From an uncultured Clostridia bacterium (GTDB lineage: Bacteria > Bacillota > Clostridia > Christensenellales > CAG-314): DNA of 64,000 nucleotides. The notes beneath the pieces are model-generated. The model was not told the DNA's origin. It saw nothing but the letters and a program-made list of their open reading frames with translations, and made no database searches. The position numbers and the translations under genes were made by a program. Every line of letters starts with the position of its first letter. The stretch's first letter is position 1. Where the stretch lies: contig CANQYT010000001.1 of NCBI GenBank assembly GCA_947628135.1, forward strand, positions 129,285 to 193,284. The letters are read 5' to 3'. Below, piece after piece: positions 33,654 through 61,686 of the stretch.

Positions 33654-33655
33654 AT

Positions 33656-33968
33656 TTTCCGACCACACGTGCGGCGGTCGATTGCTTGCTACTGCGTAAC
33701 GCTTGCGCAATCGACGGTTAAATAGACAACATTTACAAAACCGACTTCCTCGTCCGAAGTCGGTTTCTTTTTATACAGTGAGTAACATTATCCTGTGCGC
33801 TAACGCGCCGCCGCAGTCGGACTTGGGAGTGGTGCAGGAAACCTGCACGGTCGGATAAACCTTTCGCCGGGGTCTCCCATACCCCCGGCATCCCCGGGGA
33901 GGACGCAAAGCTTCGGTACACGCCCGAACTTTGCGGAGTTTGGTTGAAACTTTCCGACCACACGTGCG
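33656..33968. repeat. 18-nt perfect direct repeats (TTTCCGACCACACGTGCG) bracketing a 277-bp segment
   Basis: Copies at 33656-33673 and 33951-33968 (period 295 bp). The enclosed segment holds a terminator hairpin and, at 33863-33899 on the minus strand, a 37-nt GC-rich motif also present at 41309-41345. Confidence 0.8.
33741..33772 (+). terminator. rho-independent terminator downstream of smpB
   Basis: Hairpin CCGACTTC-ctcgtcc-GAAGTCGG followed by TTTCTTTTT. Confidence 0.75.
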
Positions 33969-34039
33969 ACAAGTCGTATCGGGTATTCGGTGAAAAAAGG
34001 CTTCACTTCGTGTGCCGCACCTAACAGGGTGCGGCACAC

Positions 34040-35095
34040 TTGTTGCAGATTATTCACATCAACTTGCAACTCAAAAAAGACCTTCCCCGTCACGGGTAAG
34101 CCGTTACGGGGAAGGGGGACTGCGCTCCGCGCGGTGGAAGAGGGATACTCGAAATCAACAATATCCATATTTTTCTCCTTACTCTCTACAACTTTGTCCG
34201 CAGGAAACTTATATTGTATCGCAATCGACCTTATTAACCTTCCCCGTCACGGGTAAGCCGTTACGGGGAAGGTGTCGCCCGACGGGCGACGGAAGAGGGG
34301 TTCTTTGAAACCAACTTACTTCTTTGCCCCCCCCCCTCTTTCGTCTGCTACGCAGCCACCTTCCCCGAAAGTCGCGCTTGCGCTGTTGACTGTCGGGGAA
34401 GGTCTGTTGCTAAACTGCACTTATGACTGCAAATACAGTGTGTTTTTGAGACGTTGTTTTTGTTATCGGTAAAATTGACAAAACAAGTGTAATTTGTTTT
34501 TTCTCTCACTCTGTCTACAACAACTTACATTAAACACTTTCCAACTTGTCTATATTCTTTTTCTCTCACCCCGTCCGCAGGATACCCACATCAACTCGCA
34601 ACTCAAAAAAAACCGTCCCCGTCAATTACGCACCGCGGAATTTACGGGGAAGGTGTCGCCCGACGGGCGACGGAAGAGGGTTTTATTGAAACCAACTTTT
34701 TTGCCCCCTCTTTCGTCTGCTACGCAGCCACCTTCCCCGAAAGTCGCGCTTGCGCTGTTGACTGTCGGGGAAGGTCTGTTGCCGAATTGCACTTATGACT
34801 GTAAATACAAGTGTGTTTTTGAGACGTTGTTTTTGTTATCAGTTGAATATACAAAACGGTGTAATTTGTTTTCTCTCACCCCGTCCGCAGGAAACCCACA
34901 TCAACTCGCAACTCAAAAAAAACCGTCCCCGTCAATTACGCATAGCGGAATTTACGGGGACGGGGGACTGCGCTCCGCGCGGTGGAAGAGGGCTTTTCCG
35001 AACCCAACTGTTTTTATCTCCAAGTCGGCGCGGCGCGCCCCGCAGGGGGCGGTAAGCCCAATGTCCAAAGTCGGGACGCAAAAACAAGTTTTTAC
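34040..35095 (+). repeat. modular hairpin-repeat array A (4 units)
   Basis: Heads GTCCGCAGGA(A/T)AC at 34196, 34573 and 34883, plus a head-less first unit. The hairpin CC(G/T)TCCCCGT...ACGGGGA(A/C)GG occurs 4 times. Two units carry the long second hairpin CCTTCCCCGAAAGTCGCGCTTGCGCTGTTGACTGTCGGGGAAGG. No plausible CDS. Confidence 0.9.
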
Positions 35096-35100
35096 ACTAT

Positions 35101-35616
35101 TTATAGAGTATTCGCCTCAACATTTGACATAGAGCCATTTTGTTTGCGCATAGTTTTCACCGCAACGGCGGACAGCGCCAGCACAGTTGCGATCAGCGCA
35201 ATGTTCACGGCGGGTACTACCGCAAACAAAGCCGAAATCTCAACCAACAGGAAACTGTACACGCTGTAAACAGTCACAAGCGCAGCGGAAATGCAAACCA
35301 CCACAAGGCACGCAACTATTGCGCCGTACTTCTTGCCGTTGCAAAGCAGTACTATCCACACGACGGCAAGCGCAATGGCGGGTGGCAACGCCGTGAAGAA
35401 CCACAACACAACGATAACCATCGCGCCCAAAACCTGTCCCAACGCCTCGCCCAGTTCCTCCGAGGTCGTTGTTTCCGTCTCGCTTGGGGCGGTCTCGGTT
35501 TGCGAGCCGTTGCTCGCCGATATGAGCGCAGGCGTAATCACAAACGAAGCCAACAGCCACACGATGAGTATCGGCAGCAAAATTTTCAAAGCCGTTACAG
35601 AACGTAAGTTTTTCAT
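35101..35616 (-). CDS. hypothetical integral membrane protein
   Basis: 171 aa. Signal/TM at the N-terminus, a T/E-rich linker, then three or four TM helices. Confidence 0.55.
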   Translation of the reverse strand: MKNLRSVTALKILLPILIVWLLASFVITPALISASNGSQTETAPSETETTTSEELGEALGQVLGAMVIVVLWFFTALPPAIALAVVWIVLLCNGKKYGAIVACLVVVCISAALVTVYSVYSFLLVEISALFAVVPAVNIALIATVLALSAVAVKTMRKQNGSMSNVEANTL

Positions 35617-35699
35617 ATCTACCTCCGCAAAAATGTTGTAACGTTGCCGAGTTTAGCACTTTTTATGTGCAAAGTCAACACCTTTCGTCAAAATATTTT

Positions 35700-36353
35700 T
35701 TACTGCTTGTCTTGCTCGTCCCTTTCGCTTTGCGTTTCGCCGTCCCTTTCGGCAATCATTTTGCGCAGTTTGCTTGCGTGGTAGTAGCAGTTGCAGCGGC
35801 TCAGTCCCAACTGCTCGCTCACCTGCGCAATGGTCAACTTGTCCGCAAAGTACAGCGCAAACACCTGTACAAACTGTTCTGAGTAGCGGCTTTGCGGACG
35901 TCCGAAACGCACCCCGCGCAGTTTTGCGGAGGCAATGCCCTCTTTCTGCCGTTGGCGTATGTTTTGCCGTTCGTTTTCCGCCACAAAGGACAGCACCTGC
36001 AACACCACGTCGGAAATAAACTTTCCCATCAGGTTGTCCGTTCTTTCCCTTGTGTCCAACACAGGCATATCCAGCACCGCAATGTCCGCGCCTATTTCCC
36101 GAGTAATCGCTTTCCATTCTTCTATTATCGCGTCGTAATTTCTTCCCAACCTGTCAATGGACTTTATCACCAGCAAATCGTCCTTTTTCAGCACGGCAAG
36201 CAGTCGTGCGTACTGTTCCCGTTCGAAGTCTTTTCCGCTTTGCTTGTCCACAAAGACGTTTTGTTCGTCAATTCCCATCTGCGCAAATGCGTCCAACTGC
36301 CTCGCCACACACTGATCCTGCGAGGAGACCCTCGCGTAAGCATACATCGTCAT
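35700..36353 (-). CDS. serine recombinase, resolvase/invertase (Hin/Gin/Tn3-resolvase) type
   Basis: 217 aa. N-terminal catalytic domain YAYARVSSQDQ (catalytic Ser), LLVIKSIDRLGRN, ENERQNIRQRQKEGI, and a C-terminal HTH (LTIAQVSEQLGLSRCNCYY). Confidence 0.9.
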   Translation of the reverse strand: MTMYAYARVSSQDQCVARQLDAFAQMGIDEQNVFVDKQSGKDFEREQYARLLAVLKKDDLLVIKSIDRLGRNYDAIIEEWKAITREIGADIAVLDMPVLDTRERTDNLMGKFISDVVLQVLSFVAENERQNIRQRQKEGIASAKLRGVRFGRPQSRYSEQFVQVFALYFADKLTIAQVSEQLGLSRCNCYYHASKLRKMIAERDGETQSERDEQDKQ

Positions 36354-36494
36354 AATTGTACTTTTATCCTCCTTGATTTTGTTTTGACGAATTTCTCGCC
36401 GCTTTCGGCAAGTTGATATCTATTTTAGCCAAATTTTCCGAGATTTCAAACCGTGTTGTCGAAAAAAACGAAAAATTGAAAAAAAATTTCAAAA

Positions 36495-36514
36495 AAAAGT
36501 AGGATTTAACTAAC
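36495..36514. repeat. left inverted repeat of the candidate invertible promoter segment
   Basis: AAAAGTAGGATTTAACTAAC. The reverse complement of 36668-36687 is AAAAGTAGGATTTTCCTAAC. That is 18/20 matching, with a 13-bp perfect core. Confidence 0.6.
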
Positions 36515-36556
36515 TTTGACGAAACGTCGTATTTTTTTGCTCGTTTCAACGTCATA

Positions 36557-36577
36557 CCTGCCGTGAGGCGGGTTTTT
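36557..36577 (+). terminator. small plus-strand terminator inside the candidate invertible segment
   Basis: Hairpin CCTGCC-gtga-GGCGGG followed by TTTTT. The reverse strand has no T run after the hairpin, so it is unidirectional. Confidence 0.5.
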
Positions 36578-36630
36578 GCGGGCTTTTCGCCGCGCTTTGT
36601 GCCGTTGCAAAGCGAGTTTGCAATACATCT

Positions 36631-36659
36631 GTTATACACCAATCGATTTTCTTTGTCAA
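36631..36659 (-). promoter_or_regulatory. near-consensus sigma-A promoter on the minus strand inside the candidate invertible segment
   Basis: Reverse strand reads TTGACA (36659-36654), a 17-nt spacer, then TATAAC (36636-36631). It currently fires toward the recombinase gene and away from the 36725 operon. Confidence 0.6.
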
Positions 36660-36667
36660 TGATTTTT

Positions 36668-36687
36668 GTTAGGAAAATCCTACTTTT
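36668..36687. repeat. right inverted repeat of the candidate invertible promoter segment
   Basis: GTTAGGAAAATCCTACTTTT, the partner of 36495-36514. It ends 37 nt before the ATG at 36725. Confidence 0.6.
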
Positions 36688-36724
36688 ACTAACACTCGGA
36701 CGGCACGTAGAAAAGGGGGTAAAT

Positions 36725-38302
36725 ATGCGTGATATAACGCTGACAAACGGCGGCAAACGCCGTGCAATATTGGCAGTTTTTGTTGCGGTAGCGTTGCTCG
36801 GCGCGGCTTTTGCGTTGTTTTTTGCGCCTGCGGCAAATGCCGCCCGCAGTGATACGGATTGGGTAACTGTGGGCGAAACTGTGCTTGCCCGCTCCTCCGA
36901 CGGCACAACCAAGTTCAACAAAAATTCGCTGGAAGCGCTGTACGGCTATCTCACCGCAGAGGGGACGTACTCGTCCGTTGCCGCTGCGGCACAGTCGGGC
37001 AAAACTTCCGCCGATTTCCGCACCCTCAACGGCGGAAAAAACGTTTCCGTCTATTTCGGCGGTTTCGAGTGGGACGTAGTGTACCTCACCACGGCGCAGA
37101 ACGGCGGTGGCAACACCAATAAAGGCGACGTCATTCTCGACTTGTGGCGTTCGGTGGACGATAATATGACTTATGCCAAAGACGCTGTTATACACTTCAA
37201 TGCCCCTATGTCTAATACAACCGTTAGGTATCCATCGATGTTGTATTCTGTGTATTATTCGCGCGTGGTGGGGTTAAATATCGGCGGGGCTTATAATTCC
37301 ACTAGTAGAGGGAGCTCTTTGGATTATGTAAATCAAGACGCCAATCATCAGTACGCCCGCTTTACTATGACCGAAGATCAGGGCGTATCGGGCAGTTTGA
37401 CGCAGTTCATTGCCACGCCCGTGCAGGTAGGCTATCAAGAACACGAGTGGGACGAAGCAACGTCCAACGCAATTAATTCGAACAAATATTATTGCCCCAA
37501 CGACGCCTACGGAGTTCCGGAAGTCGGTGGACAATGGATACGTAATGAGTTTAATTTACTTGAACGAGGTGATGATGAAGAACGTCCGGCAGTGGCAAAA
37601 TACGACGCTTGGAAGAACGACTATCTTTGGTTGGCTTCTATTTCTGAAACGGGTTTTGAGGATGACGTTGGCAACGGTATTTGGGATACTGATGTCTCTC
37701 TTCGGAGTTCTATTGAACTAAAAAGTTCTCGTCTGTCGACAAAAATAACTTTGTTACGCTCTCACAAAGGCGATACTCGTAGTGGGGGTTATTTTAGTAC
37801 ACTCGACGAGTCTGGTAACCAAGGAACTTTGACTGGTACCAGCAACGGTGTCGTTCGCCCCGCATTGCACCTCAATCTCACCCAAGCCAACGACAATTCG
37901 GAAGAGCCGTCGTTGTCCTACACGTTTGAATTGCCCGACTCGGTGGAATTTGCCGTCCAAGACGGGGTTGCAACTGCAACTATCAACGTCACGGCGAGCG
38001 ACATATACGTCCCCGCGGGCAAAACTCTCACGCTCTATGTAAAAGACAACGAAGGTCTACTCGAAAACACATTTTACCTTTGGAACGGCGGTACTAAGAA
38101 GGAGTACACCCTTTCCGCCTCGGGAGGGAACGCCGTCGAAAACGGTGCATTCGACCCCCTCTACGGCAAGATGATTTGGCAGTTGTCGAACGACAAAACT
38201 ATTGCTTCCGAAACGTTTACTATCACGCTTACCCTTGTCTCGTCTCCCACACGTGCGGGCACTTGGCAGGACGCGCTGACATTCACCGCTGTGGTCACTT
38301 AG
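36725..38302 (+). CDS. secreted large protein of unknown function (distant DUF6273-like features)
   Basis: Met 55 of ORF 36563..38302, preceded by AAAAGGGGG. Signal peptide RRAILAVFVAVALLGAAFALFFAPAANAA. Motifs FGGFEWDVVYL, DYLWLASISE and ITLLRS loosely echo the 13031 protein. Confidence 0.6.
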   Translation: MRDITLTNGGKRRAILAVFVAVALLGAAFALFFAPAANAARSDTDWVTVGETVLARSSDGTTKFNKNSLEALYGYLTAEGTYSSVAAAAQSGKTSADFRTLNGGKNVSVYFGGFEWDVVYLTTAQNGGGNTNKGDVILDLWRSVDDNMTYAKDAVIHFNAPMSNTTVRYPSMLYSVYYSRVVGLNIGGAYNSTSRGSSLDYVNQDANHQYARFTMTEDQGVSGSLTQFIATPVQVGYQEHEWDEATSNAINSNKYYCPNDAYGVPEVGGQWIRNEFNLLERGDDEERPAVAKYDAWKNDYLWLASISETGFEDDVGNGIWDTDVSLRSSIELKSSRLSTKITLLRSHKGDTRSGGYFSTLDESGNQGTLTGTSNGVVRPALHLNLTQANDNSEEPSLSYTFELPDSVEFAVQDGVATATINVTASDIYVPAGKTLTLYVKDNEGLLENTFYLWNGGTKKEYTLSASGGNAVENGAFDPLYGKMIWQLSNDKTIASETFTITLTLVSSPTRAGTWQDALTFTAVVT

Positions 38303-38346
38303 CGCCGCGCTGAGTTTTTGGGAATTGCAACAAGGAGACAAACACA

Positions 38347-38874
38347 ATGAACTTCGATTCTAAACGTGACAAAAAACTTCTGCTGACGGTAATTGCGTTG
38401 TTGCTGTTGGCTATGCTAACCGATCTACTTCTGTGCGTCTTGATGCTGGGCTACAAGCCGAGCGGAGACGTCACTTCCTCCTCCGGTGGCGGCGGCATTG
38501 GGTTCGACCCCGACGTTTCGGACGAACGTCCGGGCACGGTTACGCAAACGCAAAGCGTATCCGTGGCGGGTTTCTCGAAACTTACAATGCCGCCCGACGC
38601 CGACACAATTGCAATAGATTTGTACAACCCCGAGGAAAACTTCGGCTTGTACTATCTGACGTTTGAGTTGCGCTTGCGCCTTGACAACGGCGAATACGAA
38701 ACGCTGTACAAGTCCGGCTTGGTGGGCGCAGGCAAACACATCTATCAGATAACCCTTTCCCACGCGCTTAGCGCGGGCGAGTACTCGGGAGAGTTGTTTA
38801 TTCAGCCCTACCGTATGTCCGATATGTCCCCCACAAACACCGTGACGGGCAACCTGACGATAATAGTTAAGTGA
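38347..38874 (+). CDS. membrane-anchored extracellular protein, unknown function
   Basis: 175 aa. N-terminal TM (LLLTVIALLLLAMLTDLLLCVLML), a G/S linker, then a beta-rich domain. Confidence 0.55.
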   Translation: MNFDSKRDKKLLLTVIALLLLAMLTDLLLCVLMLGYKPSGDVTSSSGGGGIGFDPDVSDERPGTVTQTQSVSVAGFSKLTMPPDADTIAIDLYNPEENFGLYYLTFELRLRLDNGEYETLYKSGLVGAGKHIYQITLSHALSAGEYSGELFIQPYRMSDMSPTNTVTGNLTIIVK

Positions 38875-38925
38875 TGAATACGAGTAGGTCTCGTGTTTAT
38901 AAAAAAATATGGAGGTAACAAAACA

Positions 38926-39462
38926 ATGACAAAGACAATGACAAAGACCGCTTTGATAGTTTTCGCGGCAGTGTTGGTGCTGGCTGCGGTGTGCGTTGCA
39001 TTCGCTTGCACGGGCACGGCAAATGCGGCTGGACTCGCCAGCGATGGCAGTAACACCGGCTCGGTACAGGTGACGTACAGTGTTGAGGGCGGTTGGGCAG
39101 TAACAATTACCGACGGACCGATCAACCTTAAACCCGACCAAGAACAAACCATCACCGTAGAAGTGACCAAAGCCGTTTTGGGTGACGGTGAAACACTTTC
39201 GATAACGATCGAAAGCGAACACGACTACAAACTTGTACACGGCAGCGACTCTTTGGCTTACACCGTAAAGAAAGGCGCAACAACTTTCAGCTCAAGCGAA
39301 AAGACCGTTCTTGAAAATATCGACGGTACAACCGACCTTTCCGCAAACGGCAAAGCGGACTTGACAGTCAAACTTGAACAAGCCACCGCAAGCCAAGCCA
39401 AGTACGAAGGCGCGTACACCGACACGCTCAACTTCACGGTAAACACGAACGGCGGCGACTAA
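38926..39462 (+). CDS. secreted beta-rich protein, unknown function (pilin/WxL-like C-terminal strand)
   Basis: Met 12 of ORF 38893..39462, preceded by GGAGG. Signal peptide ending TANAAG. The C-terminus YEGAYTDTLNFTV resembles terminal strands of surface-fibre or WxL-type proteins. Resemblance only. Confidence 0.55.
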   Translation: MTKTMTKTALIVFAAVLVLAAVCVAFACTGTANAAGLASDGSNTGSVQVTYSVEGGWAVTITDGPINLKPDQEQTITVEVTKAVLGDGETLSITIESEHDYKLVHGSDSLAYTVKKGATTFSSSEKTVLENIDGTTDLSANGKADLTVKLEQATASQAKYEGAYTDTLNFTVNTNGGD

Positions 39463-39555
39463 CAAATTTCGTCTGGCGGTAGCGGTGCGCTTTGCCCGCT
39501 GCCGTCAAACGGCGTTGCGGTACAACAAATCAATGCAAAGGTAGGAGTAAAAATT

Positions 39556-40410
39556 ATGCTTGGCATTTTGGCAGATTCCATTTTCGGCACGCACGTAGAT
39601 TCCATTGCGGACATTCTGTTTTGGATAGTTTTGGCACAGGTGTTGCTTTTTGCCGCCGTGGAGGTGTGCATAGTAATTTTGTTACGCCGACCGAAAGACG
39701 CCGACCAATCGACCGAACAGCGCTCTCCCGAGCAGTCGCCCGCACCGAGCGGCGACGTTGCGGCGAGCGTTGCGGCGGAGCAGGTAGCCGCAGAGCAAGT
39801 AGTTTCGGAGCAGATTTCCGCAGAGCAGGTTGCGCCTCAGCAACAAGAGGCGGCGCAGCCCGCCCCCATCCTTGTTGACACGGCGGACTCTCACGAAGCG
39901 GGCGTCTTGCGCTACGACAAAAGTTTTGTGGCGCGTCTGATACAGTCGGACGATTGGCTCAAAGACCGTTACAACGTGTTGAAGAACGAACTTTTGAGTT
40001 ACAAAGGCGTAAAATGCCGTTACAATTGGAAGCGCGAAACTTTCAAAGCGGGCAAAAAGTACGTTGCTCGTCTGTTGTTCCGCGGCAAAACGCTGTGCGT
40101 TCTGTATCCGCTCGACCCCGAGACATATCCTGCCGACAGCGCATATCGCGCGGAAGCGGTAAACGCTCCCACGTTGACGGACACGCCGTCTATGTATCGC
40201 ATACGCAACGAAAAGCACTTCAAAGTGGCGCTTGCCCTGCTAAACGCGACGGCGAGGGAACTCGGGCTGACCCGTACCGCCCGTATCCCCGAGGACTACT
40301 ATATGCCCTACGAGGGTACTTTGCAACTCATAGAGCGCGGCTTGGTAAAGAGAAAAATCAAGTCCGCGAGCGAAGAGGCGATTTTCACGCGCAAAAACGG
40401 CGACGATTGA
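39556..40410 (+). CDS. membrane-anchored protein with an AEQV-repeat linker and a conserved C-terminal domain of unknown function
   Basis: 284 aa. N-terminal TM, a low-complexity repeat AAEQVAAEQVVSEQISAEQVAPQQQ, then a globular part (YDKSFVARLIQS...GKTLCVLYPLDP). Confidence 0.55.
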   Translation: MLGILADSIFGTHVDSIADILFWIVLAQVLLFAAVEVCIVILLRRPKDADQSTEQRSPEQSPAPSGDVAASVAAEQVAAEQVVSEQISAEQVAPQQQEAAQPAPILVDTADSHEAGVLRYDKSFVARLIQSDDWLKDRYNVLKNELLSYKGVKCRYNWKRETFKAGKKYVARLLFRGKTLCVLYPLDPETYPADSAYRAEAVNAPTLTDTPSMYRIRNEKHFKVALALLNATARELGLTRTARIPEDYYMPYEGTLQLIERGLVKRKIKSASEEAIFTRKNGDD

Positions 40411-40463
40411 CGGGCACGGCAGAGATCTGCACCCCGCCGTGGTACAACCATTTCAGCAAAAAA

Positions 40464-40499
40464 CAGCGCTTTCCACCTTGGAACGCGCCGTTTTTTTTT
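40464..40499 (+). terminator. rho-independent terminator closing the 36725-40410 operon
   Basis: Hairpin CAGCGCTTTCCA-cc-TTGGAACGCGCCG followed by T9. Confidence 0.75.
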
Positions 40500-40514
40500 G
40501 CCATTTGACTATTC

Positions 40515-41110
40515 TGTACGTGCCCTGTCCGCAGGAAACTCGCATTGTACTGCAACAAAACAACCTTCCCCGTCACGGGTAAGCCGTTACGGGGAAGGTG
40601 TCGCCCGACGGGCGACGGAAGAGGGGCTTTTCCGAAACCAACTCAATCCCTCGCCCCTCTTTCGTCTGCTACGCAGCCGCCTTCCCCGAAAGTCGCGCTT
40701 GCGCTGTTGACTGTCGGGGAAGGTCTGTTGCAGAATTGCACTTATGACTGTAAATACAGTATTGTTTTGAAACGTTATTTTTTTACTTTCTTTTTTAACT
40801 TTTCATCTATCAAATTTATTTACAATGTTCTGATTACCTTTTTTTGACCGCTTGTTTGTGTAGTTGTTTTTTATGTAAAAATTGTCTATATTATTTTTCT
40901 CCCACCCCGTCCGTAGGAAATTCACATCAAACAATTACAAACTTGTTCATTTTTTCTTTCACATTGTCCGCAGGAAACCCACATTGTATTGTGACAATAA
41001 AAACCGTCCCCGTCACGGGTAAGCCGTTACGGGGAAGGTGTCGCCCGACGGGCGACGGAAGAGGGGTTGTTGAACCCGACTGTTTTTATCTCCAAGTCGG
41101 CGCGGCGCGC
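40515..41110 (+). repeat. modular hairpin-repeat array B (3 units)
   Basis: Heads at 40527 (exact), 40909 (GTCCGTAGGAAA variant) and 40966 (exact). Unit 1 shares a 63-nt identical block and a 77/78 block with array A unit 1. Same orientation as array A. Confidence 0.9.
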
Positions 41111-41490
41111 CCCGCAGGGGTCGGTTGCAAGGAACGCCGTCAACCGAACCGACTTGCGTTTGGTCGGAACACACTTGCGTTTAATCGGAACATCATTACA
41201 AAATAAAATAGGAATTTGAGTGAGCGCAGGGCGTGTGGACACAACGCACAAGCGGAAAAAACTCAAATTCCGTCTGCAATCGGCGACAGGCGCGGCGATT
41301 GCAGCCCACCCCGGGGATGTCGGGGGTAGGGGAGACCCCGACGAAGTGTAAAAAAAAGAAGGCGCGTGCAGCGACTTCCTCAGTAGCCCGACCAAGTCGG
41401 CGCGGCGCGCCCCGTAGGGGTCGGTTGCAAGGAACGCCGTCAACCGAACCGACTTGCGTTTGGTCGGAATATACTTGCGTTTGGTCGGAA
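41092..41490 (+). repeat. 300-bp-period tandem duplication (about 1.3 copies) abutting the typA stop codon
   Basis: A ~99-nt block CCAAGTCGGCGCGGCGCGCCCCG(C/T)AGGGGTCGGTTGCAAGGAACGCCGTCAACCGAACCGACTTGCGTTTGGTCGGAA... starts at 41092 and again at 41392. It includes an internal 23-nt repeat, ACTTGCGTTT(GG/AA)TCGGAA. The 37-nt GC-rich motif sits between the copies at 41309-41345. Confidence 0.85.
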
Positions 41491-41491
41491 C

Positions 41492-58970: not shown

Positions 58971-59124
58971 CCTAAACCTCAACAGAAGAAGTTGACGATG
59001 TCGCAAATCGGATACCTGCAAGGTCGGTTTGTTCTGATTCAACAATGGACAATGGCTGTATCTTACGGGACTATGAGCGGCAACGCAAGCGGGCAAAGCC
59101 GACGTAAACTTCAATCAAAACAAA

Positions 59125-59156
59125 ACACCCGAGGATTTCCCCTCGGGTGTTTTCTT
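59125..59156 (+). terminator. rho-independent terminator preceding array C
   Basis: Hairpin ACACCCGAGG-atttcc-CCTCGGGTGT followed by TTTCTTT. Confidence 0.8.
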
Positions 59157-59189: not shown

Positions 59190-61412
59190 TATTTTCTATT
59201 TTTCTTCCTGTCCGCAGGAAACATATATTGTATCGCAACCATTAAAACAACCGTCCCCGTCAATTACGCATAGCGGAATTTACGGGGAAGGGGGACTGCG
59301 CTCCGCGCGGTGGAAGAGGGGGTTTCCGAAATGATTTGTATACCCTTTAACAACCCGCTACGTCGGACGTGGTGGAAGAGGTTTTTTCCGAAACCCTATT
59401 ATTTTTCACACCGCGACATCGGAGATGGCTTTTCGAAATTTGTATATTCTCTGCCAACCCGCTACTTTCGACTTCCCTCTCACCCTGTCCGCAGGAAATA
59501 AATTTTGCACGGCGATGAAAGACCTTCCCCGTCACGTATGAATTTCTCCAATATGTATTTTTGCTATCACCTGTTCTAAATGTCTGTATTTTTTATTTCC
59601 CCTGTCCGCAGGAAACGTATATTGTATCGCAATCATTAAAACAACCGTCCCCGTCACGGGTAAGCCGTTACGGGGAAGGTGTCGCCCGACGGGCGACGGA
59701 AGAGGGTTTCTCCGAAATCAACTCACTCCCTTGCCCCTCTTTCGTCTGCTACGCAGCCACCTTCCCCGAAAGTCGCGCTTGCGCTGTTGACTGTCGGGGA
59801 AGGTCTGTTGCTCGATTGCACCTATGACCGTAAACACAGTGTGTCTTTGAGTAGTTGTTTTTGTTGTCAGTTAAATTCACCAAACGAGTTAGTTTGTTTT
59901 CTCACACTTTGTCCGTAGAAAATGCAAATCACCCGCAAAAAATTTGTATATTCCATATTTCATTTCTCTCCCTGTCCGCAGGAAATAAATTTTGCACGGC
60001 GATGAAAGACCGTCCCCGTCACGTGTGAATTTCTCCAATATGTATTTTTGCTATCACCTGTTCTCAATGTCTGTATTTTTTTTACCCCTGTCCGCAGGAA
60101 ACGTATATTGTATCGCAACTATTAAAACAACCGTCCCCGTCACGGGTAAGCCGTTACGGGGAAGGTGTCGCCCAACGGGCGACGGAAGAGGGTTTCTCCG
60201 AAACCAACTCATTCCTTTGCCCCCTCTTTCGTCTGCTACGCAGCCACCTTCCCCGAAAGTCGCGCTTGCGCTGTTGACTGTCGGGGAAGGTCTGTTGCTA
60301 AATTGCACTTATGACTGCAAATACAGTGTGTTTTTGAAACGTTGTTTTTTTGTTATCGGTAAAATACACAATGCAAGTGTAATTTGTTTTTTCTCACTCT
60401 GTCCGCAGGAAATAAATTATGCACGGCGATGAAAGACCGTCCCCGTCACGTGTGAATTTCTCCAATATGTATTTTTGCTATCACCTGTTCTCAATGTCTG
60501 TATTTTTTTTACCCCTGTCCGCAGGAAACGTATATTGTATCGCAACCATTAAAACGACCGTCCCCGTCACGGGTAAGCCGTTACGGGGAAGGTGTCGCCC
60601 AACGGGCGACGGAAGAGGGTTTGTTGAAATGATTTGTATACCCTTTAACAACCCGCTACATCGGACGTGGTGGAAGAGGGTTTTCCCGAAACTATTTTTA
60701 TTTTTCACACCGCGACATCGGAGAGGGCTTTTCGAAATTTGTATATTCTCTGCCAACCCGCTACTTTCGACTTCCCTCTCACCCTGTCCGCAGGAAATAA
60801 ATTTTGCACGGCGATGAAAGACCGTCCCCGTCACGGGTAAGCCGTTACGGGGAAGGTGTCGCCCAACGGGCGACGGAAGAGGGTTTCTCCGACGCCAACT
60901 CACTCTCTTGCACCCTCTTTCGTCTGCTACGCAGCCACCTTCCCCGAAAGTCGCGCTTGCGCTATTGACTGTCGGGGAAGGTCTGTTGCTCGATTGTACC
61001 TATGACAGTAAATAAAGTATGCTTTTGAAACGTTGTTTTTGTTATCAGTTAAATACACAAAGCAAGTGTAATTTGTTTTCTCTCCCTGTCCGTAGGAAAC
61101 GTATATTGTATCGCAACCATTAAAACAACCTTCCCCGTCACGGGTAAGCCGTTACGGGGACGGGGGACTGCGCTCCGCGCGGTGGAAGAGGGTTTGTTGA
61201 AATGATTTGTATACTCTTTAACAACCCGCTACATCGGACGTGGTGGAAGAGGGTTTTCCCGAAACCATTTTTATTTTTCACACCGCGACGTCGGAGAGGG
61301 CTTTTCGAAATTTGTATATTCTCTGCCAACCGCGCTGTCTAACGAGGTGGAAGAGGGGTTAATTGAAACCGACTCACTCCCTCGACCCCATCTTTTGTCT
61401 GTCGAAATGCCC
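59190..61412 (+). repeat. modular hairpin-repeat array C (9 units plus one degenerate head)
   Basis: Heads at 59210, 59487, 59604, 59974, 60090, 60401, 60517 and 60786 (exact GTCCGCAGGAAA), at 61088 (GTCCGTAGGAAA), and a degenerate one at 59911. Short (~115 nt) and long (~270-370 nt) units alternate. No RBS-led ORFs. Confidence 0.92.
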
Positions 61413-61449
61413 CTCAACTCGCGCGTTTGCGCGATTGAGTGCGTTTTTT
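61413..61449 (+). terminator. rho-independent terminator closing array C
   Basis: Hairpin CTCAACTCGCGC-gttt-GCGCGATTGAG followed by tgcgTTTTTT. Confidence 0.75.
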
Positions 61450-61686
61450 CTTTTCAAAAACCGCCTTTTTTGCAATTTTTACCCCCATTTGCGCAAAAAG
61501 TTTAGAATAACTAATCAAAACGTTTGACATTACTTAACCATTGCTATATACTGTCATTGTTGCCCGTGGCAAACAAATTTATTTTCGTATATGCAAGCGG
61601 TCGTGCTTGCGCCGTGAGATACGGCGGTACTGTAAATAACTTGTTGGTTGCCGTCGGGTATTTTTTTGTATCGGGAGGTGTCGATA

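Follow-up and report, generated by a model that had tools for sequence, protein, structure and literature searches.

A 64-kb stretch of the chromosome of an uncultured rabbit-gut Clostridia bacterium (contig CANQYT010000001.1; 64,000 nucleotides, hereafter the window, its source being the window species) carries three intergenic arrays built around a conserved double-hairpin block of 62-72 nt, which we call module M. With a probability of roughly 0.55, we regard these arrays as members of a lineage-specific and apparently undescribed family of mosaic intergenic palindromic repeats in Fimimonas-like Clostridia, comparable to repetitive extragenic palindromes (REP) and bacterial interspersed mosaic elements (BIMEs), or to the Neisseria intergenic mosaic elements (NIMEs). 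A previous inspection based on the nucleotides alone (the sequence-only reading) had likened the hairpins to REP and REP-associated tyrosine transposase (RAYT) systems, a likeness that we find apt.

The window contains 16 units headed by GTCCGYAGRAWA, close to the number estimated before, all on the plus strand and distributed among three intergenic clusters (arrays 1 to 3 in Table 1). Units span 57-393 nt, and all the material between modules is itself repeated. The alignment of all copies delimits M as the conserved block, with an A-rich flank on its 5' side, and shows its parts to be hairpin 1, whose stem CCKTCCCCG/CGGGGAMGG carries a self-complementary apex of variable sequence; a short GC hairpin; and the tag GRAAGAGGG. 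A covariance model of the module (R1), used to call M copies on both strands, matches 12 modules on the plus strand and six on the minus strand, the latter forming the 3' half of each of the six long units. The long unit at 60087-60400 reads, on the plus strand, a punctuation motif P, a leader, hairpin 1, hairpin 2, the tag, a linker, CCCTCTTTCG, a small hairpin, a last hairpin and a tail. Its first and last hairpins have nearly the same 10-bp stem, as had been noticed in the sequence-only reading, and because the last hairpin, the small hairpin and the tag next to it all belong to an inverted M, the long unit is a tail-to-tail inverted dimer of M, as in a BIME or in a pair of inverted REPs (REPIN). 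That tag and small hairpin are in mirrored order can be read directly in the 3' half, where the small hairpin appears on the plus strand as CTGC-TAC-GCAG and the tag GACGAAAGAGGG stands as its reverse complement, CCCTCTTTCGTC, the forward copy having GACGGAAGAGGG. Forward and inverted M are paired in all six long units. The comparison of the two hairpins with the left-end and right-end (LE and RE) hairpins of IS200/IS605 elements does not hold, since the last one is part of a reverse-complement module and not a like-oriented end.

The mirrored arrangement is also seen outside the window species. In two metagenome-assembled genomes (MAGs), bin65 (CANQCN01) and bin45 (CANQNJ01), the 3' half aligns in minus orientation with the forward module of the window (84-88% identity over 67-79 nt; BLAST, E down to 3e-20), and the forward M type of the window is present in both MAGs as the inverted type. 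The tag does not vary among the 24 full-length forward M that the model alignment contains, reads GRWAGAGGG in inverted copies, and is GGGAGAGGA in two large-insert variants, L008 and L013 (L-numbers designate loci fetched from other assemblies or MAGs). Large-insert variants of M were also noticed in the comparisons of L012 with L057, which belong to the same species, and of L054 with L055; they carry a structured insert of ~100 nt (GGGTACCCGCACAATTTGAGCTTGCGAAAATTGTGTGGGAGAGGA...) between hairpin 1 and the tag, and appear to have arisen by recombination between GGGACCACC-type direct repeats. Arrays are organized head-to-tail, with M pairs on short linkers separated by longer linkers made of tail, P and leader. 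There are three types of leader among the units, and P has diverged forms in the sister species (e.g., CCCACCCC-ATTCGCGGAGACA).

The long unit at 60087-60400 folds far better than its shuffles. As RNA, the 314-nt unit reaches -111.3 kcal/mol on the plus strand against -82.5 +/- 4.8 for dinucleotide shuffles, the reference for all our z-scores (z -5.95), with a z of -5.43 for the minus strand and of -6.73 for the 171-nt core folded as single-stranded DNA (ssDNA). It had been suggested that G-U pairs would reveal the functional strand; both strands fold beyond shuffles, and the G-U counts single out neither. The raw numbers (13 G-U vs 23 A-C) are mostly alignment artefacts, and the genuine cases, roughly 4 vs 1, are too few, so that this route to the functional strand was abandoned.

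Pairing in hairpins 1 and 2 is kept while the sequence changes, across three species. Hairpin 1 at 60131 has a 10-bp stem with a C/T internal mismatch and the apex ACGG-GTAAG-CCGT; a second self-complementary apex, CAATTACGCAYMGCGGAATTT, is present at 34613, 34923 and 59251, in agreement with the two unrelated apexes described in the sequence-only reading, and a third in the last hairpin raises the number of apex types in the window to three. At least six more variants occur in the sister species with their pairing maintained, for example AATT/AATT vs AATC/GATT and TGTGC/GCACA vs GCGC/GCAC. Hairpin 2 takes the forms GTCGCCC/GGGCGAC, CTGCGC/GCGCGG, CCACC/GGTGG, CCGC/GCGG and CCGCGC/GCGCGG. Among 37 modules (28 distinct) from the three species, in an alignment that was fitted to the structure, 85.5% of the cells are paired and 11 of the 24 pairs show two-sided changes, which takes the preservation of base-pairing claimed before well beyond two sub-families. 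The covariation score is 0.179, compared to 0.097 for shuffles (none of 500 as high) and 0.02-0.07 for slid controls. The signal does not extend to stem position 3, which has G.A or T.C in 13 of the 28 distinct copies and shows no covariation, and the C/T internal mismatch of the stem is conserved. Nor does it extend to the leader, in which a small hairpin had been thought to persist through different sequences: leader folding energies (0 to -1 kcal/mol) equal those of shuffles, the sole exception being the copy at 40978 (-3.7). Conservation of structure had been taken as a sign of selection on a folded RNA or ssDNA. The conservation itself is upheld for hairpins 1 and 2, but compensatory changes in palindromes are no proof that an RNA is under selection, because template switching within a strand can restore complementarity and could mimic the effect of selection.

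Comparison with related genomes indicates how the arrays come and go. Between 29 and 41 kb was sampled from each of two sister genomes, GCA_947630455 and GCA_947601445, and arrays are insertions relative to a sister genome. The spacer after prs in GCA_947630455, whose Prs is 97% identical, measures 68 nt and contains a terminator hairpin and then TTTTATTTTTCGGCGTGT; in bin65 an array of ~450 nt lies between the stop codon and the same T-rich TTTTATTTTTCGGCGTGT. The ligA-yicC spacer measures 152 nt in GCA_947630455 and 848 nt in bin65, where an array of ~650 nt has been added and the yicC promoter part is conserved. Likewise, the spacer before a helix-turn-helix (HTH)-cupin gene is occupied by the 2.3 kb of array 3 in the window and is an array-free sequence of 230 nt with the same promoter in GCA_947601445; another relative has array modules upstream of this gene in the opposite orientation. 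Strains also differ in their arrays by indels, the ends of which fall at module borders or in hairpin apexes. Between L054 and L055 there is an indel of ~215 nt with GGCGCGC at its flanks, and L057 differs from L012 by two deletions, one ending immediately before TTACGGGG, so that the right arm of hairpin 1 is left alone, and the other lying between GGGACCACC and GGGACCGCC. Local tandem duplication is seen as well: array 3 contains a higher-order repeat (59476-60622) with periods of 487 and 427 nt, each repeat comprising a short unit with half a hairpin plus a long unit, with 98% identity between two of its three copies and 66% (ungapped) for the third. The left-arm-only hairpin CCCCGTCACG, continued by unrelated sequence, is present in three copies in the window. 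The repeat family is evidently young; within a genus-level group, some species have it and a sister species lacks it in the same spacers.

Its known distribution is narrow. Scanning one genome per GTDB species with an exact hairpin pattern, restricted to type-2 apex spacing, gave only two matches, the rabbit-gut "uncultured Clostridia" MAGs bin65 and bin45, and nearly all GTDB pattern matches lie at contig ends. The named relatives of the flanking proteins belong to Candidatus Fimimonas. Pattern matches in JGI metagenomes were judged by R1 to be due to chance, as were those in IMG/VR viral contigs, which contained no M copies, and there was no BLAST match to a long unit in plasmids or phages. 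The neighbours of the arrays are unrelated housekeeping or surface genes: prs, ligA/yicC, mgtE, and genes for transporters and for surface proteins with leucine-rich repeats (LRR). Independent assemblies have contigs that break off within arrays, and other assemblies covering the window loci are colinear with it and then stop inside the arrays. Two loci, L001 and L002, diverge from the window at repeat borders, probably as alternative assembly paths and not as real variants. At L001:2758-3400, the path leaves the window sequence at 33952 and continues into tRNA genes and a 20-nt duplicate of a tRNA 3' end (GGCGTGCCCGACAGGAGTCG), which looks like the att site of an integrated element; the path could also be a chimeric join at a repeat.

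If the arrays are REP-like repeats, new loci would be seeded when a trans-acting enzyme encoded elsewhere handles folded, single-stranded M, and the arrays would then grow and be shuffled by recombination between modules and by tandem duplication, any effect on termination or RNA ends being a by-product. The candidate enzyme would be a RAYT-like HUH Y1 nuclease; RAYTs of group 1 are present in Clostridia (PMC5581495). Several observations weigh against this interpretation. We found no Y1/RAYT or other transposase, TnpB or IscB among ~30 window open reading frames (ORFs) scanned with Pfam, or in the fetched loci, which total ~0.3 Mb and are in large part redundant or from unrelated chance-match contigs; tblastn, with the sequence of an IS200 TnpA as query, had no match either. 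The statement in the sequence-only reading that the window has no Y1 transposase, TnpB or IscB gene is supported to that extent, the remaining long ORFs having been judged by reading their translations. In about 11 of the 12 arrays judged (an informal count), composite units have the same orientation as a gene at their flank, which a purely DNA-level element would not obviously require. At prs, the array replaces the terminator-hairpin sequence instead of simply interrupting the spacer, and no clean insertion of a single module with defined ends or a target duplication was seen. The absence of M from the sister genomes is drawn from samples of ~29 kb and ~41 kb, in which R1 found no copy, an only moderately informative result. 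Finally, M is twice as large as a REP (62-72 nt and two hairpins, hairpin 1 alone having 35-41 nt, vs 20-40 nt and one hairpin), and its tag is the 3' GRAAGAGGG, whereas that of REPs is a 5' GTAG or CGTC.

The position of the arrays raises the question of a function in RNA. Three unrelated genes of bin65 are followed by arrays at a distance of 0-2 nt from their stop codons, the first module being one that we call the H-module, and one of these arrays (L010) ends in a canonical terminator; in the window, arrays start just after terminators. The arrays occupy the interval between a stop codon or terminator and the promoter that comes next, and to judge from this placement they are probably transcribed as 3' extensions. 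In the nine cases read in bin65 and bin45, an inverted M is followed by 4-9 T (9/9), a run that corresponds to the A-rich 5' flank of M in reverse and that is missing after the inverted M of the window species. Since an inverted M with its T run resembles a terminator, arrays may act as terminators, insulators or RNA-stabilizing ends, as a side effect of the repeats and not as their origin. This likeness was noted by inspection: a simple terminator scan did not flag the combination, because of the internal loops and a 3-nt gap before the T run. Promoters are not a regular feature of the units. No conserved promoter per unit was found: there are only 9/12 matches in two units, and the tail of one long unit has a single 10/12 promoter-like match (TTGAGA-18-TAAAAT). 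One sigma-70 promoter per unit was considered and rejected, the matches being no more than shuffles give, and Bacteroidetes-style promoters (TAnnTTTG) were dropped when the relatives proved to be Clostridia.

It is against this background that the units could be structured-RNA genes or functional modules of 3' untranslated regions (3'-UTRs) read from the plus strand, that is, small-RNA arrays, protein sponges, or stabilizer and terminator cassettes. Such a role would account for the compensatory changes in hairpins 1 and 2, for the G.U pairs that the plus strand forms in hairpin 2b, the tag:anti-tag helix and a single bin65 stem, for the arrays beginning right after bin65 stop codons or window terminators and closing with plus-strand terminators (61421-61455; L010), and for the T runs of the sister MAGs; the promoter-like sequence in a long-unit tail would fit too, and the C/U-rich linker loops might be compared to anti-Shine-Dalgarno seeds. 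We nevertheless consider it unlikely. Both orientations of M coexist within arrays, which a loop-specific RNA motif would not tolerate, four bin65 copies have an A.C mismatch on the plus strand, a conserved promoter per unit is missing, the T run is merely the A-rich flank of M in reverse, and the patchy, species-specific spread with strain-level indels is atypical for a functional RNA gene. Nor do the units correspond to an Rfam family: Rfam 15 gave 0 family matches in the window, the best sub-threshold candidates of a search at E<10 (17-23 bits) being unrelated, and no family for the arrays at 13 MAG loci, where the sole match was an M-box riboswitch outside them. This Mg2+ riboswitch (RF00380, 100 bits; L011:3645-3806) lies upstream of mgtE in bin65 and is unrelated to the arrays. 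Candidate T-boxes, hammerhead and other ribozymes, a transfer-messenger RNA (tmRNA) beside smpB and a group II intron had no Rfam or ARAGORN match.

A rather more doubtful explanation dispenses with a dedicated enzyme: terminator-derived hairpins would have spread by homologous or illegitimate recombination, by gene conversion among intergenic regions and by replication slippage, with template-switch correction making the apexes self-complementary and keeping them so in the absence of selection. Template switching at quasi-palindromes is an established mutational route. With its A tract, GC hairpins and reverse T tract, M looks like a bidirectional terminator, arrays occupy terminator positions and have replaced a terminator at prs, indels end at short direct repeats and hairpin apexes, and local tandem duplication is present. 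However, near-identical modules are found at many unlinked loci, beside unrelated genes, in three species, and recombination alone would not easily seed new loci. Moreover, the invariant unpaired tag, the conserved internal mismatch and the polymorphic mismatch at position 3 (13/28) look like recognition features.

We find it improbable, albeit worth stating, that the arrays belong to a wholly undescribed system, either a hairpin-plus-tag-directed ssDNA recombinase different from RAYT and IS200 that would place cassettes between stop codon and terminator, or programmable RNA modules in 3'-UTRs. If the latter were true, the double hairpin with its GGA-containing tag GGAAGAGGG, at up to 18 per 64 kb, could bind the ribosome or an RNA-binding protein, for instance CsrA, as a sponge or a platform. 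The idea that follows from the sequence-only reading, of a long unit that is a non-autonomous, palindrome-associated transposable element (PATE) of the IS200/IS605 type, with LE and RE hairpins for the Y1 enzyme TnpA and possibly an omega-RNA of TnpB or IscB, seems to us very improbable, for although same-stem hairpins lie near both unit ends, TTAC occurs in the right arm of hairpin 1 and all units are on what is probably the lagging-strand template (because genes are mostly on the plus strand and GC skew is mostly positive), the 3' hairpin lies in an inverted module, which makes the ends inverted and not direct, a different module occupies that place in the sister species, indels and truncations end in apexes or at module borders and not at fixed tetranucleotides beside hairpins, TnpA, TnpB and IscB were not found in the window or fetched loci, and Rfam, a library that presumably includes omega-RNA-type families such as HEARO, found nothing.

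Table 1. Arrays, modules and parts of the long unit at 60087-60400, in window coordinates.
Feature	Position	Strand	Remarks
Hairpin like an intrinsic terminator, belonging to the upstream gene and directly preceding array 3	59122-59153	+	Listed on - by the scan; + strand T run by eye
Terminator-like hairpin and T run closing array 3	61421-61455	+	Terminator scan
Array 1, H-module followed by 4 units	33972-35060	+
Array 1, forward M	34081-34144, 34238-34299, 34613-34680, 34923-34992
Array 1, inverted M	34331-34402, 34703-34774
Array 2	40511-41130	+	Forward M 40564-40625, 41004-41065; inverted M 40652-40723
Array 3, 10 units, ~2.3 kb	59190-61455	+
Array 3, forward M	59251-59320, 59645-59706, 60131-60192, 60558-60619, 60822-60883, 61129-61192
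Array 3, inverted M	59735-59803, 60219-60290, 60913-60981
Half hairpin, left arm CCGTCCCCGTCACG joined to unrelated sequence	60010-60023	+	Same junction at 59523-59536 and 60437-60450; full copy at 60822
Punctuation motif P, pyrimidine tract and GTCCGCAGGAAA	60074-60101	+	Start of every unit; 16 copies, all +
Leader type a, 29 nt, 3' end A-rich	60102-60130	+	Folding no better than chance
Hairpin 1 of forward M (CCGTCCCCGT-CACGGGTAAGCCGTT-ACGGGGAAGG)	60131-60165	+	Fold and pair counts
Hairpin 2 of forward M, GTCGCCC-AAC-GGGCGAC	60167-60183	+
Purine tag GGAAGAGGG, 3' end of forward M	60184-60192	+	Pairing possible with 60222-60230
Tail-to-tail linker, ~30 nt, C/U-rich, variable	60193-60221	+	Different among the six long units
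CCCTCTTTCG	60222-60231	+
Inverted M (type 3): tag CGAAAGAGGG, CTGC-GTA-GCAG, hairpin CCTTCCCCGA..TCGGGGAAGG	60219-60290	-	R1 match, E 1.4e-10
Last hairpin, CCTTCCCCGA...TCGGGGAAGG, within inverted M	60247-60290		10-bp stem in common with hairpin 1
Tail, AT-rich and containing T runs, as far as the next P	60291-60400	+	Weak promoter-like match in its paralogue, at 34446-34475

The surroundings of the arrays are those of an ordinary chromosome, with genes for RNase R, SmpB, BipA, DnaX, PGK and similar proteins. A small serine recombinase (Resolvase, PF00239; 35700-36353, minus strand) is the only recombinase found in the window; it was discarded as partner enzyme, as no homologue was found beside arrays elsewhere. 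It lies in a 5.4-kb segment of lower GC content between arrays 1 and 2 (35100-40500) that also encodes several proteins with no Pfam match and may be an inserted island, because both arrays end in the same tail, GAACCCRACTGTTTTTATCTCCAAGTCGGCGCGGCGCGCCCCGCAGGGG. Other repeated structured modules are located at 33654-34056, directly after the SmpB stop codon, where ATTTTCCGACCACACGTGCG occurs at 33654 and again at 33948. One of them, a 113-nt module at 33704-33815, contains a terminator-like hairpin (33738-33766); it shares 82% identity with its sister-genome copy (L050:589-700) and recurs at L002:1835-1931. The H-module consists of GGCTTCGCTTCG, a hairpin and CTCGTTGCAGATT inside a helix of 10-13 bp, and is found at 33972-34056, L009:4494-4590, L010:3056-2960 (minus strand) and L018:476-390 (minus strand); its helix covaries (GGTGC/GCACC, GATGC/GCATC, CTCAAAA/TTTTGAG), and the module has no Rfam match. 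Runs of three or four perfect short hairpins, all different in sequence and separated by the constant heptamer ACTTCAC, are present at L009:5085-5190 and L010:2450-2330 (minus strand), their only match being a weak, sub-threshold one to the Rfam family Gut-1 on the opposite strand (23 bits, E 0.057). A direct repeat of 100 nt (95% identity; 41092-41191 and 41392-41491) surrounds a GC-rich structured stretch of ~200 nt, whose motif CCCCGGGGATGTCGGGGGTAGGGGAGACCCCG (~41310-41341) recurs inverted at ~33868-33900. Leaders of type c contain an eight-codon ORF that runs into hairpin 1 (ATG AAA GAC CGT CCC CGT CAC GKG; 60811-60837, also 59512, 59999 and 60426) and stops at TAA in the full copy and at TGA in the truncated ones; having no obvious Shine-Dalgarno sequence, it is probably a coincidence.

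Repeats of the REP/BIME type are textbook elements in Proteobacteria and poorly known in Clostridia and, to our knowledge, experiments have shown how they spread in no more than a few RAYT systems. Being compact, highly structured and young, the M family is a good case in which to find the enzyme that moves such modules, and it allows hairpin repeats placed between stop codon and terminator to be tested for effects on mRNA stability and termination. There is also a practical side, as M arrays fragment the short-read MAG assemblies of this gut lineage and chimeric joins are possible, as in L001 and L002 compared to the window.

Several known systems share part of these features. A CRISPR array was rejected as an explanation: the inter-module DNA is itself repeated, there is no match to a CRISPR direct repeat, and no cas domain was found in the ~30 Pfam-scanned ORFs of the window. 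Hairpin 2 with the sequence ..ATTGAAAC was likened to what we take to be type I-C repeats, a likeness that is not kept in bin65. Nor do the arrays behave as classical miniature inverted-repeat transposable elements, since the inverted modules could be terminal inverted repeats (TIRs) but their flanks (AAAARA / TYTTTT) are inverted and not direct, the copies are mosaic and not discrete, and no target duplication was seen. Rho-independent terminators have in common with M the A tract, the GC-rich hairpin, the T tract and the location directly downstream of genes, one of them being replaced at prs; they differ in that M is near-identical and multi-copy, forms tandem arrays of up to 2.3 kb, and has no T run after the inverted copies of the window. 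IS200/IS605 elements and PATEs are similar in their subterminal hairpins, their function as folded ssDNA, their strand bias and their lack of classical TIRs, whereas M units end in inverted copies, show no fixed cleavage tetranucleotides and form mosaic arrays instead of discrete copies, with tnpA and tnpB found neither in the window nor in the fetched loci.

Among Firmicutes, the bcr1-18 repeats of Bacillus cereus and the BOX, RUP and SPRITE elements of pneumococci (PMC3049150) are structured intergenic repeats, some of which are transcribed and some of which have compensatory changes. These Firmicute repeats resemble the M arrays in being intergenic and either modular, in the manner of boxA-B-C, or hairpin-forming. 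They have no sequence similarity to M and possess defined ends or TIRs with TA duplications, or a fixed A-Bn-C order, and none of them is known to have a double-hairpin-plus-tag module in both orientations. The likeness to NIMEs is architectural, with no sequence relation to their palindrome, and consists in variable units punctuated by a conserved palindrome in intergenic arrays. In Neisseria, variable RS units of 50-150 bp are bounded by dRS3 palindromes, 20-bp inverted repeats that are targets of phages and IS110-type elements, in intergenic recombination mosaics that often lie beside surface-protein genes. M arrays, on the other hand, are punctuated by a 65-nt double hairpin and a separate P, and no integrating phage or IS was seen.

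REP/BIME-type repeats come closest. Besides size and tag, M arrays differ from them in their long and modular linkers (P, leader, tail, H-module), in their Clostridia host, and in that a RAYT was not found in the window or fetched loci. A CGTC-tagged REP family was rejected because its features do not fit: the 5' foot of M is only A-rich, and CGTC lies inside the stem, where it is polymorphic (CCTTCC variants). The stem of a REP is imperfect, with a mismatch that is required, and its tag is conserved and single-stranded; REPs occur in types that differ and keep complementarity, form pairs of REP and inverse REP (iREP), and vary in tandem copy number by locus and strain (PMC3333891). The M family, too, is made of intergenic imperfect palindromes with an unpaired tag and a stem mismatch (PMC3333891; PMC3733652). 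Its types differ and yet maintain complementarity, it is positioned after genes, its forward and inverted modules form pairs across short and long linkers, and the composition of the arrays varies by locus and strain.

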